This document shows, one piece after another, positions 35,115 to 45,675 of a stretch of 64,000 nt of DNA. This DNA comes from Escherichia coli. Lineage in GTDB: Bacteria; Pseudomonadota; Gammaproteobacteria; Enterobacterales; Enterobacteriaceae. Numbering within the stretch: the stretch's first letter is position 1; each line of letters opens with the position of its first letter. The stretch lies in NCBI RefSeq assembly GCF_003334405.1, contig NZ_QOWM01000002.1, one strand, 5' to 3'. The position numbers were made by a program, and so were the translations under genes. The notes below the pieces were generated by a model. It saw nothing but the letters and a program-made list of their open reading frames with translations, was not told where the DNA came from and ran no database searches.

Positions 35115-36464
35115 TTGGCGGGTTTTAACATCAAACATTGGTTTGCAGATGGCGCGTTTCGCACCATTATTCGCAATAGCGCCTGGTTAGGCTCCAGTAA
35201 TGTCGTGAGCGCCTTGCTGGGTCTGTTGGCGCTCTCGTGTGCCGGTAAAGGGATGACGCCCGCCATGTTTGGCGTACTGGTGATTGTGCAATCGTACGCC
35301 AAGTCGATCAGCGATTTTATTAAGTTTCAGACATGGCAACTGGTGGTTCAGTACGGAACACCAGCATTAACCAACAATAATCCGCAGCAATTCCGCAATG
35401 TCGTCTCATTTTCCTTCTCGCTGGATATCGTCAGCGGCGCGGTGGCGATTGTCGGTGGCATTGCCTTACTGCCATTCCTTTCCCATTCATTAGGTCTGGA
35501 TGACCAAAGTTTTTGGCTGGCAGCGCTCTATTGCACGCTCATTCCTTCAATGGCTTCCTCCACGCCGACCGGCATTCTGCGTGCGGTAGATCGCTTCGAT
35601 TTAATTGCTGTACAGCAGGCGACGAAACCTTTTCTGCGCGCAGCGGGGAGCGTCGTAGCCTGGTATTTTGACTTTGGTTTTGCGGGTTTTGTTATTGCCT
35701 GGTACGTGTCGAATCTGGTTGGCGGCACCATGTACTGGTGGTTTGCCGCGCGCGAATTACGCCGCCGAAATATCCATAACGCCTTCAAATTGAATCTGTT
35801 TGAGTCTGCCCGATACATTAAAGGCGCGTGGAGTTTTGTCTGGTCAACCAACATTGCCCACTCCATCTGGTCGGCGCGTAACTCGTGCAGCACAGTGTTG
35901 GTGGGGATCGTGTTAGGACCCGCTGCCGCCGGGTTATTTAAAATCGCCATGACATTCTTCGACGCCGCCGGAACGCCAGCGGGTTTGCTGGGTAAAAGTT
36001 TTTACCCAGAGGTGATGCGTTTAGATCCGCGCACCACCAGACCGTGGTTGTTAGGTGTGAAGTCCGGTTTACTGGCGGGCGGAATCGGTATTCTGGTGGC
36101 GCTCGCGGTGTTGATCGTCGGCAAGCCGCTCATTTCGCTGGTGTTTGGCGTTAAGTATCTCGAAGCGTATGACCTGATTCAGGTGATGCTGGGCGCAATT
36201 GTGATTTCGATGCTGGGCTTCCCTCAGGAGTCATTGCTATTGATGGCGGGAAAACAGCGCGCTTTTCTCGTGGCGCAAACCATCGCCTCAATCGGCTACA
36301 TCGTATTGCTGTTCATGTTCTGTCATCTGTTTGGTGTGCTGGGAGCAGCGTTTGCTTACTTCGGTGGGCAATGTCTGGACGTGGCGCTCTCGTTAATTCC
36401 AACCTTAAAGGCATTTTTTCAGCGCCATTCCTTGCTTTATAACGCAGCCGGAGAGAAATCCTGA
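35115..36464 (+). CDS. yghQ: MOP-superfamily (Wzx/MurJ-like) polytopic membrane flippase YghQ, full length
   Basis: 449-aa ORF with about 12-14 hydrophobic helices; its stop overlaps the next gene's start. My recollection is that the K-12 copy is annotated shorter. Confidence 0.78.
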   Translation: MAGFNIKHWFADGAFRTIIRNSAWLGSSNVVSALLGLLALSCAGKGMTPAMFGVLVIVQSYAKSISDFIKFQTWQLVVQYGTPALTNNNPQQFRNVVSFSFSLDIVSGAVAIVGGIALLPFLSHSLGLDDQSFWLAALYCTLIPSMASSTPTGILRAVDRFDLIAVQQATKPFLRAAGSVVAWYFDFGFAGFVIAWYVSNLVGGTMYWWFAARELRRRNIHNAFKLNLFESARYIKGAWSFVWSTNIAHSIWSARNSCSTVLVGIVLGPAAAGLFKIAMTFFDAAGTPAGLLGKSFYPEVMRLDPRTTRPWLLGVKSGLLAGGIGILVALAVLIVGKPLISLVFGVKYLEAYDLIQVMLGAIVISMLGFPQESLLLMAGKQRAFLVAQTIASIGYIVLLFMFCHLFGVLGAAFAYFGGQCLDVALSLIPTLKAFFQRHSLLYNAAGEKS

Positions 36465-37288
36465 TGATGAGAAAATATTTCCCGCTTGAGGCGAGCGAGC
36501 GTCTATTTGTTGCGATTGAAGAAGATGATGTCGTTGATGCACAGGTTAGTTTGCCGCCGACTATTGCACTAAGTTGTACCACCGAAATCATTCATGATAA
36601 TTACGCGTTATGCCTGCAATTCTGGCTCAATGGCGTTGATCGTCAGGAGTTACTGCGTTTAGTTCGCAAACAAGCCAAAGGCGATGAGCTGACTGCTGAT
36701 GAGCGCAAACAATTTAAATACATGCGAGCGCGCTACAAGCACCTGCGTTTTGCGCAACGGCTGTATTTAAAGAAGCATCAGGCCGGATTTTTATTCGGCA
36801 AAACGACCGTTTTTCTGGGGCGTTTTCAGGACGGCTTTCGTAACGGTAAGAAAAATATTGTGTCGTATTACGGCAACCTGTTACGGATTTATTTAAGCTC
36901 TCCGGTCTGGTCGTTGGTGAACTATTCATTACGCCATAGCCAGTTAGAAAGCGTAAGCAGTTTTATTGCCTATCGGCAAAAGCAAATGCATACCCTGAAA
37001 GAGATTATTGCCAAACCGCGACTAACCGGTAGGGAATTTCATGATGTGCGAAAAATCATCAGCCAGCAGGTTTCTTATTACGACACCTTAAGATCGCTTG
37101 ATCCTGAAAATAAAGAGGCGTTACAGATATCCCGCTTCCTCGCCGCCATTAATGGCCTGATGGGAGATAAACACGACGACATGGTGGCGGATGATATGGA
37201 AAACCGCCAGTCGTATGATGCACCGGTGGCGCTGGATAGCGATATTCGTCAGCGCTTAGAGCTGCTGATTTCGCGTTTTCCGCTATAG
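36464..37288 (+). CDS. Hypothetical protein, co-operonic with yghQ
   Basis: 274-aa soluble ORF with no motif I recognise, translationally coupled to yghQ by a TGATG overlap. Confidence 0.6.
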   Translation: MMRKYFPLEASERLFVAIEEDDVVDAQVSLPPTIALSCTTEIIHDNYALCLQFWLNGVDRQELLRLVRKQAKGDELTADERKQFKYMRARYKHLRFAQRLYLKKHQAGFLFGKTTVFLGRFQDGFRNGKKNIVSYYGNLLRIYLSSPVWSLVNYSLRHSQLESVSSFIAYRQKQMHTLKEIIAKPRLTGREFHDVRKIISQQVSYYDTLRSLDPENKEALQISRFLAAINGLMGDKHDDMVADDMENRQSYDAPVALDSDIRQRLELLISRFPL

Positions 37289-37296
37289 CCGGAGCA

Positions 37297-44165: not shown

Positions 44166-44532
44166 GAAAAAATTGGATATCCAAAATAAAATGACAATAA
44201 TGCGGTGGATTATATAGGCATAAAAGATAAATGAGATAGTATTTTCATCAGTGTGAAAATGAACATTGATTTAAATAATGAGTTTGAGTTTTTTTGTTTT
44301 TATTGTGAATGATATTTAATTTATGAATATATTAAGAAGAAGCCTTGTCCGGTCGCCTTAAATCGACAAAAGGCATTGTGGCGCTTCTGTGTAGTCTCTG
44401 ACCTTATCGTAATCATTAATAAATACTATTTATTCGTCGTTTGTATTCATTGGGTTGATTATTAAGGTGCCGTTCGTTGCTGTTGCAACCTGTTTGTCAC
44501 CGTTAATTATTTGTTACCCACAGAACAGAACT

Positions 44533-45675
44533 ATGGAATGCGATCTGCTGATGATTAAAATTGAAAAAGTAATTAATAAAAATGACCTTAAGGCATTTAT
44601 CGCTTTTCCGTCATCACTTTATCCCGACGATCCAAACTGGATACCCCCTTTATTCATTGAACGCAACGAGCATTTGTCTGCGAAAAATCCGGGGACGGAC
44701 CATATCATCTGGCAGGCGTGGGTGGCAAAAAAAGCGGGGCAGATAGTTGGGCGTATTACCGCGCAAATAGATACCTTGCACCGCGAGCGTTACGGCAAAG
44801 ATACCGGTCATTTCGGCATGATTGACGCCATTGATGATCCGCAGGTTTTTGCCGCGTTGTTTGGCGCAGCGGAAGCGTGGTTGAAGTCACAAGGTGCAAG
44901 TAAGATCAGCGGTCCTTTCAGCCTGAATATCAATCAGGAAAGCGGATTACTGATTGAAGGTTTTGACACACCACCCTGTGCGATGATGCCACACGGCAAA
45001 CCGTGGTATGCCGCGCATATTGAACAACTGGGTTATCACAAAGGCATTGATTTACTGGCGTGGTGGATGCAGCGAACCGATCTCACTTTCTCTCCGGCGC
45101 TAAAAAAACTGATGGATCAGGTGCGCAAAAAGGTGACCATTCGCTGCATCAATCGTCAGCGGTTTGCCGAAGAGATGCAGATCCTGCGTGAGATTTTCAA
45201 CTCTGGCTGGCAGCACAACTGGGGATTTGTGCCGTTTACCGAACATGAATTCGCGACCATGGGCGATCAACTTAAATATCTGGTGCCGGACGATATGATC
45301 TATATCGCTGAGATTGATTCTGCACCCTGCGCGTTTATTGTCGGCTTGCCGAACATCAACGAGGCGATTGCCGATCTGAACGGATCGCTCTTTCCCTTCG
45401 GCTGGGCAAAATTGCTGTGGCGTTTGAAAGTCAGCGGTGTGCGAACTGCGCGAGTACCGCTGATGGGCGTGCGCGACGAGTATCAGTTCAGCCGCATCGG
45501 CCCGGTGATTGCGCTGTTATTGATTGAAGCCTTACGCGATCCGTTTGCCCGCCGGAAGATCGATGCGCTGGAGATGTCATGGATCCTCGAAACCAATACA
45601 GGCATGAATAACATGCTGGAACGCATTGGGGCGGAGCCGTACAAGCGTTACCGATTGTATGAAAAGCAGATTTAA
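44533..45675 (+). CDS. yghO: YghO, provisionally acyl-CoA N-acyltransferase (GNAT)-like, full length
   Basis: Open frame from 44455; start placed at the first ATG (MECDLLMIKIEK). Divergent from the FAAL operon. The GNAT-like assignment is from recollection of how this family is annotated, not from a motif visible here. My recollection is that the K-12 copy is a truncated pseudogene next to IS5. Confidence 0.7.
   Translation: MECDLLMIKIEKVINKNDLKAFIAFPSSLYPDDPNWIPPLFIERNEHLSAKNPGTDHIIWQAWVAKKAGQIVGRITAQIDTLHRERYGKDTGHFGMIDAIDDPQVFAALFGAAEAWLKSQGASKISGPFSLNINQESGLLIEGFDTPPCAMMPHGKPWYAAHIEQLGYHKGIDLLAWWMQRTDLTFSPALKKLMDQVRKKVTIRCINRQRFAEEMQILREIFNSGWQHNWGFVPFTEHEFATMGDQLKYLVPDDMIYIAEIDSAPCAFIVGLPNINEAIADLNGSLFPFGWAKLLWRLKVSGVRTARVPLMGVRDEYQFSRIGPVIALLLIEALRDPFARRKIDALEMSWILETNTGMNNMLERIGAEPYKRYRLYEKQI

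Follow-up and report, generated by a model that had tools for sequence, protein, structure and literature searches.

The yghQ-yghO region of Escherichia coli, analysed here in a 64,000-nucleotide stretch of DNA from this species (the window; positions count from its first letter), has several described counterparts. At the same locus in strain BL21(DE3) lie ECD_02850-ECD_02854 (yghO/aca, aasR, epi, acpR and spt), whose acyl carrier protein AcpR (ECD_02853) carries 4′-phosphopantetheine. E. coli AasR (ECD_02851) acylates AcpR, and E. coli Spt prefers acyl-AcpR, which it condenses with serine to give 3-oxo-sphinganine; ECD_02852 was assigned as the epi reductase and yghO (ECD_02850) as an N-acyltransferase (Padilla-Gomez et al. 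2022, PMC9386255). In Caulobacter crescentus, CC_1152-CC_1168 comprise the same five ceramide genes together with a second LptF/LptG and a flippase beside aasR (PMC11324152; PMC10331486). Within K-12, NCM3722 was reported to contain ‘7 kb of new sequence’ with an extra IS5, an intact yghO and an acyl carrier protein gene interrupted by IS5 (Lyons et al. 2011, PMC3045373), and WG1 to contain an IS5-flanked extra block that is lacking in EMG2, MG1655 and W3110 (Browning et al. 2023, PMC9997739). Our analysis indicates that a 13-gene envelope-lipid module, broken by IS5 in K-12, is probably preserved in the window in its ancestral state, free of damage.

A first-pass annotation, made from the sequence of the window, had described a 449-amino-acid yghQ and a long yghO with eight genes between them, and the open reading frame (ORF) listing and RefSeq annotation both agree with this description. 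Eight intact ORFs occupy the span from yghQ to yghO (36464-44165). Across this stretch, strain 300709 and the window are practically the same in sequence (reported 100.0%), and the RefSeq annotation of that strain lists ten genes, among them, in order, yghQ (‘lipopolysaccharide biosynthesis protein’), a hypothetical protein, a YtfJ-family protein, lptF/lptG, spt, an acyl carrier protein and yghO. Because the eight genes are real and annotated, chance ORFs are not an issue. The genes of the module and the intervals missing from K-12 are as follows.

32700-33392, minus strand: yghT, P-loop kinase-like paralogue, RefSeq ‘dTMP kinase’, kept in MG1655.
33566-34279, plus strand: yghS, P-loop kinase-like paralogue.
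34311-35069, plus strand: yghR, P-loop kinase-like paralogue.
35115-36464, plus strand: yghQ, intact here (449 amino acids, TTG start, extent matching the RefSeq coding sequence of strain 300709); its product passes the membrane several times and is placed in the MOP (Wzx/MurJ-type) flippase superfamily.
36464-37288, plus strand: gene for a 274-amino-acid protein without an assigned family or any predicted membrane segment.
37300-37860, plus strand (ORF 37297-37860): ytfJ2 (label coined here), YtfJ family, with an N-terminal signal-like segment.
37891-38961, plus strand: lptF2, LptF paralogue.
38958-40037, plus strand (mechanical ORF from 38877): lptG2, LptG paralogue.
40072-41244, minus strand: spt, serine palmitoyltransferase.
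41244-41492, minus strand: acpR, specialised acyl carrier protein.
41524-42438, minus strand: epi (cerR-type), NAD-dependent short-chain dehydrogenase/reductase (SDR), presumed 3-oxo reductase.
42435-44165, minus strand (the RefSeq start gives 44123): aasR, acyl-AcpR synthetase of the fatty acyl-AMP ligase type.
44124-44532: AT-rich intergenic region between the divergent aasR and yghO, presumed control region, absent from MG1655.
44455-45675, plus strand (ORF of 406 amino acids, or 380 amino acids from the RefSeq start at 44533): yghO.
36180-44572, 8,393 bp: interval without a counterpart in MG1655-type K-12, which has one IS5 in its place.
36180-37539: interval without a counterpart in WG1/NCM3722-type K-12, which has IS5 in its place, with the right junction at TTAA 37540-37543.

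Alignment to MG1655 located the damage at base level. MG1655 tracks the window to 36179, continues with one complete IS5 and rejoins window sequence at 44573, and 36180-44572 is absent. The IS5 termini (GGAAGGTGCG...CGCACCTTCC) stand at both junctions, exactly where DNA is missing and where yghQ and yghO are cut. In MG1655, yghQ ends after nucleotide 1065 with its last 285 nucleotides gone and is annotated as a pseudogene, and yghO has lost its first 40 nucleotides together with all upstream DNA. The claim that K-12 retains only an IS5 between shortened yghQ and yghO thus holds for MG1655. This MG1655-type block (yghQ stump, IS5, yghO stump) was found in 334 of 5,426 complete E. coli genomes.

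K-12 as a whole is not uniform, however, and here the earlier description requires qualification: MG1655 does lack the eight genes, but five K-12 strains keep lptF2, lptG2, spt, epi and aasR. In NCM3722, WG1, CY598, CY706 and CY708 an alternative state was found at 100% identity, in which the left breakpoint at 36179 is shared with MG1655 and is followed by IS5, with window sequence again from 37540. This type lacks the end of yghQ, the 274-amino-acid gene and the start of ytfJ2, keeps ~7 kb of the interval and has two IS5 copies, the second being a simple insertion at TTAA 41278-41281 inside acpR; lptF2, lptG2, spt, epi, aasR and yghO are intact. The retained DNA corresponds to the published NCM3722/WG1 block, which lies at the same chromosomal site as the window cluster, and both papers state that MG1655 lacks these genes (PMC3045373, PMC9997739). 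Relative to the window, the NCM3722/WG1 locus has a truncated yghQ, has lost the 274-amino-acid gene and has a truncated ytfJ2 and a disrupted acpR, lesions of which the window is free. The 274-amino-acid gene is absent from every K-12 strain compared, and ytfJ2 is truncated in NCM3722/WG1 and absent from MG1655. The pathway is therefore broken in the WG1/NCM3722 type as well, by IS5 in yghQ and in acpR, and the assertion that studies of the intact cluster cannot be made in K-12 stands.

The two K-12 states differ at their junctions. Set against the YTAR target sequence of IS5, the right IS5 junctions fall at native TTAA (44573-44576 in MG1655, 37540-37543 in WG1/NCM3722), whereas the left junction reads TTAA in MG1655 or TTAG in WG1/NCM3722 against native TCAG at 36179-36182. 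MG1655 accordingly has TTAA at either end of its IS5; in WG1/NCM3722 the left flank is TTAG and the right flank TTAA. Neither a single IS5-IS5 recombination nor a single adjacent deletion, starting from the WG1/NCM3722 type, reproduces the junctions of MG1655, because the base beside the left IS5 end differs (A versus G). No single IS5 event accounts for both K-12 states, and at least two events are needed. We propose that IS5 broke the module of the K-12 lineage in two or more steps. WG1/NCM3722 have an IS5 in yghQ, where 36180-37539 has been lost, and another IS5 in acpR; the EMG2/MG1655/W3110 lineage, with a single IS5 and no 36180-44572, is left with orphaned yghR, yghS and yghT and with stumps of yghQ and yghO. 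A likeness can be found in rfb-50, the IS5 insertion in wbbL behind the loss of O antigen in MG1655, which is likewise an IS5 lesion of an envelope-lipid pathway fixed in laboratory K-12 and, like the ygh lesion, differs between the WG1 and EMG2 lineages (PMC9997739). In contrast to the ygh lesion, with 8.4 kb lost and unmatched or non-native bases at the left junction, rfb-50 is a simple insertion.

A survey of the same 5,426 genomes, which together with the MG1655 endpoints (36179/44573) supplies the alignments that the first-pass annotation had proposed, showed that the module is the norm of the species rather than an oddity of B strains. Of these, 4,064 (75%) hold 80% or more of the interval missing from MG1655 and a further 213 hold part of it; 671, a class that includes O157:H7, gave no yghQ-yghO match. 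Carriers include ST131, CFT073, 536, IHE3034, O111, ST69, enterotoxigenic E. coli (ETEC) H10407, 042, E. coli C and B strains, and in other Escherichia species the same genes are likewise bordered by yghR and glcC. Since both flanking genes are truncated in MG1655, the interval is widespread and other Escherichia species hold the same genes, the comparisons support loss of DNA from MG1655 and not gain by the window, and they uphold the proposal that the window preserves the ancestral, complete locus. The converse scenario, in which the eight genes form an island gained by this lineage and K-12 displays the original empty site, would fit a rearrangement hot spot, as suggested by O-island 122 (OI-122) in O157:H7 and the pheV-island fusion near the cluster in the window. 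We give it almost no credence, for an original empty site is refuted by the truncated flanking genes, with IS5 between them, and by the K-12 intermediates WG1 and NCM3722, which still hold most of the interval. The 75% prevalence, the identical position in other Escherichia species and the ordinary GC content of the yghQ-yghO interval (0.48-0.55, the aasR-yghO intergenic region excepted) likewise oppose such a gain.

Losses outside K-12 were also found. In O157:H7 (strain 4276), pitB is truncated, and IS3 and IS66 remnants and OI-122 occupy the site where yghT onwards would be expected; the OI-122 genes at this site are a lifA/efa1-like fragment, nleE, nleB and espL2. Urinary isolate C21 (NZ_CP184155.1) has an independent deletion of the same eight genes, from yghQ nucleotide 381 to just upstream of an intact yghO, tied to ISKpn26, an IS5-family element. 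ISKpn26 also occurs inside the cluster in PSS-04, PSJ-32-1, EC17CM7 and avian pathogenic E. coli (APEC) 102026. Further partial deletions and insertion-sequence insertions were present among the surveyed genomes. The module is dispensable and has been lost repeatedly, often with the involvement of IS5-family elements.

Five of the window genes, aasR, epi, acpR, spt and yghO, make up the ceramide set already described in proteobacteria. Spt, an alpha-oxoamine synthase, scores 599 bits against NF047599 (cutoff 500) and matches the Sphingomonas serine palmitoyltransferase structure 2jg2 with E = 4e-111, aligning the pyridoxal 5′-phosphate (PLP) lysine in GTFSKS; its gene is identical in DNA sequence to BL21(DE3) ECD_02854, the enzyme assayed in PMC9386255. 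The acpR gene, directly upstream of spt and overlapping its start at 41244, is identical in DNA sequence to ECD_02853, and its product has acyl carrier protein family matches and the phosphopantetheine-attachment serine in LGLESI. AasR, with 873 bits to the fatty acyl-AMP ligase model NF006624 (cutoff 600), differs from ECD_02851 by three residues. Epi, one residue removed from its BL21(DE3) counterpart, has SDR family matches, the Rossmann glycine motif GATGFIG and a YxxxK motif (YAKSK). The YghO protein is identical to its BL21(DE3) counterpart, with one silent DNA change. It gave no match in Pfam, NCBIfam or PDB sequences, and the fold search alone was informative, returning a tandem GNAT fold of the bacterial ceramide synthase type; YghO is taken to be the cluster's GNAT-type N-acyltransferase, a homologue of Caulobacter CC_1154.

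The intergenic region between aasR and yghO stands out in composition, with GC content falling to ~0.41 over 44000-44999 against ~0.52 around it; the AT-rich sequence itself is ~400 bp long. A promoter scan of this region gave one weak match, below the shuffle mean. We regard 44124-44532 as a candidate control region that may be silenced.

The remaining genes suggest transport and head-group functions. LptF2 (TIGR04407, 318 bits) and LptG2 (TIGR04408, 308 bits) both score above the equivalog cutoffs, and alignment to solved E. coli structures yields ~94 bits for LptF and ~145 bits for LptG. Such low scores mark LptF2 and LptG2 as old paralogues. The essential lptF and lptG genes lie elsewhere on the E. 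coli chromosome. YghQ has weak NCBIfam matches to MOP flippases and at least seven hydrophobic segments, and a homologue with 33% identity adjoins aasR in a Caulobacteraceae genome. YtfJ2, a YtfJ-like periplasmic protein, scores 212 bits against TIGR01626 (cutoff 151) and has an N-terminal hydrophobic segment. The 274-amino-acid protein gave no NCBIfam or Pfam match; its gene was found clustered in Enterobacterales only, at 49-96% identity, with a ratio of nonsynonymous to synonymous substitution rates (dN/dS) of 0.07.

YghR, YghS and YghT share invariant Walker A, DR(Y/F)PQ and RKPDH motifs, with YghS and YghT aligning to YghR at 33-40% identity. For YghR, Pfam gave weak P-loop matches only (Thymidylate_kin at E = 0.09, not significant) and PDB sequences no useful match, and its AlphaFold2 model (pLDDT 79.9) lies nearest to thymidylate kinases at ~17% identity and TM-scores of 0.5-0.67. 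Thymidylate kinase, the RefSeq name of YghS and YghT, was rejected for want of a significant profile match, as judged on the paralogue YghR. A role as counterparts of Caulobacter CpgB was likewise rejected, CpgB being diacylglycerol-kinase-like (PMC10331486); among the 13 ORFs we detected no diacylglycerol-kinase-like ceramide kinase (GGDG) and no CpgA/B/C-type partner. Several RefSeq names at this locus look misleading, namely ‘lptF’ and ‘lptG’ for old paralogues, ‘dTMP kinase’ for YghS/YghT and ‘Lipopolysaccharide biosynthesis protein’ for YghQ.

Taken at face value, those names would direct the module to lipopolysaccharide instead of a sphingolipid, and the equivalog-level LptF/LptG scores and the weak Wzx-like character of YghQ agree with that assignment. 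We nonetheless judge it very improbable. LptF2 and LptG2 belong to the permease families but are distant from the solved E. coli proteins and invariably accompany spt, acpR, aasR, epi and yghO, which argues against their being the cell's lipopolysaccharide-extracting permeases. Moreover, Spt, AcpR and AasR make 3-oxo-sphinganine (PMC9386255), and Caulobacter pairs the same genes with sphingolipids (PMC11324152).

To define the extent of the unit, one genome per species was surveyed with Spt as the query, followed by tblastn with all window proteins. Thirteen genes cluster together: yghT, yghS, yghR, yghQ, the 274-amino-acid gene, ytfJ2, lptF2, lptG2, spt, acpR, epi, aasR and yghO. As judged by this linkage, the functional unit comprises all 13, with yghR, yghS and yghT always travelling with the yghQ-yghO interval although they lie outside it. 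The published account deals with the five ceramide genes and ascribes them to E. coli B and ETEC B7A (PMC9386255), whereas here they form part of a 13-gene unit found in ~75% of complete genomes. Clustering is kept in Escherichia spp., Pseudocitrobacter, Citrobacter, Hafnia, Sodalis, Serratia, Mangrovibacter, Pluralibacter, Pantoea and Rosenbergiella, with protein identities of ~50-88%. In Serratia and Rosenbergiella, blocks are inverted or moved and the set is still together. The genes that border the module in E. coli do not consistently accompany it: glcC is missing outside Escherichia, and pitB from about half of the other genera. In Pseudomonas the five core genes, lptF2/lptG2 and YghRST-like genes are clustered, and yghQ, the 274-amino-acid gene and ytfJ2 were not found within the flanks examined. 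Comparison of E. coli with other Escherichia, at unsaturated dS, gave dN/dS values of 0.03-0.16 for all 13 genes (~0.05 for yghT and ~0.1 for yghS), indicating that the genes are maintained by selection.

Two further observations came from this survey. Serratia sp. M24T3 has two spt loci, one with the full 13-gene set and a second where the flanks examined contain just spt and an acpR-like gene. In the Bacillales species Alkalicoccobacillus porphyridii, a 273-bp contig of very low coverage encodes the last 35 Spt residues at 100% identity to E. coli, and this spt fragment looks like E. coli contamination of the assembly.

Together, these assignments suggest a route for lipid synthesis and export. 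AasR loads a fatty acid onto AcpR, and Spt joins acyl-AcpR and serine to form 3-oxo-sphinganine; these steps were demonstrated experimentally with BL21(DE3) proteins that are the same as, or near-identical to, those of the window. The subsequent steps are proposed from homology, fold and conserved linkage. YghO, with its tandem GNAT fold, would N-acylate the long-chain base and Epi would reduce the 3-oxo group, affording dihydroceramide at the cytoplasmic face, where ceramide synthesis is expected to take place. The NMP-kinase-like (nucleoside monophosphate kinase-like) proteins YghR, YghS and YghT may then add or extend a phosphate-containing head group, after which YghQ would flip the lipid across the inner membrane. 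LptF2/LptG2, presumably with energy from the housekeeping ATPase LptB, would then extract the lipid and pass it on towards the outer membrane.

Comparison with Caulobacter bears on the nature of the product. A Caulobacteraceae genome encodes YghO-like (42%) and YghQ-like (33%) proteins in the Caulobacter-type arrangement. LptC2 and the head-group genes CC_1158-1161, CC_1152 and CC_1153, which include that of a diacylglycerol-kinase-like ceramide kinase, are found only on the Caulobacter side, and the E. coli cluster has instead three NMP-kinase-like proteins, a YtfJ-like protein and the 274-amino-acid protein. Because the head-group genes differ, the final lipid is probably different. That most wild E. 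coli and many other Enterobacterales make a hitherto undetected phosphate-bearing sphingolipid, with a head group added by YghR, YghS and YghT and export through a dedicated YghQ flippase and LptF2/LptG2 extractor, is a possibility that we advance tentatively and consider somewhat less probable than its negation.

Several points weigh against the interpretation of the locus as an intact envelope-lipid module broken by IS5. Three bases beside the left IS5 end are non-native (native CAG is replaced by TAA in MG1655 and by TAG in WG1/NCM3722), so that the IS5 events may have followed more than one order. The cluster holds no LptB- or LptC-like gene, and the roles of YghQ, LptF2/LptG2, YghR/YghS/YghT, YtfJ2 and the 274-amino-acid protein are drawn solely from family resemblance and linkage. 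Repeated natural loss (O157:H7, C21 and others) marks the cluster as dispensable. No 3-oxo-sphinganine appears in BL21(DE3) that carries empty vectors (PMC9386255), and the cluster may therefore be silent under laboratory conditions. A literature search of a limited collection returned no report of sphingolipids from unmodified E. coli or enterobacteria.

Some of these points would equally suit a silent relic, no longer used by E. coli and heading for loss: no sphingolipid-like product appears in BL21(DE3) unless the genes are overexpressed (PMC9386255), independent losses and insertion-sequence hits recur, and the AT-rich candidate control region could be silenced. We consider a relic unlikely, since strong purifying selection acts on all 13 genes, three-quarters of the genomes retain the full set and many genera keep the clustering despite rearrangement. 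The reading of the window as an undamaged and maintained module is accordingly preferred.

Beyond the cluster, the window follows ordinary E. coli only to 49009, inside glcE. A 439-amino-acid ORF on the minus strand (48985-50301) was considered as a transposase and rejected; it is a fragment of an Ag43/Cah-family autotransporter. The genomic island that follows contains the QatABCD genes for anti-phage defence (52328-56884), a gene resembling CBASS cyclases (58026-59351), an integrase gene (61084-62406) and tRNA-Phe (62541-62616). The DNA between glcE and the tRNA-Phe-associated (pheV-type) island appears to have been lost from this strain, and 48500-64000 is present as one piece in just 16 of the 5,426 genomes.

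The strain difference (NCM3722, WG1) and the core biochemistry (BL21(DE3)) were already published, and current knowledge is not overturned. Our analysis adds the base-level endpoints, the 75% prevalence, the 13-gene boundary with evidence of selection, the fold assignment of YghO and examples of convergent loss. The standard picture of the E. coli envelope was built mostly on MG1655-type strains, in which the module is lacking; B strains carry it, yet yield no such product unless it is overexpressed (PMC9386255). Studies of enteric sphingolipids, of their transport to the outer membrane and of the roles of yghR, yghS, yghT and yghO need a strain with an intact cluster. For such work, the exact endpoints define what K-12 must regain, and the 13-gene boundary defines the genes to be moved jointly. 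If most wild E. coli do make the proposed lipid, the belief that sphingolipids are absent from E. coli would prove an artefact, created by the K-12 deletion and by growth in the laboratory, and YghR, YghS and YghT would represent a head-group chemistry unlike that of Caulobacter.

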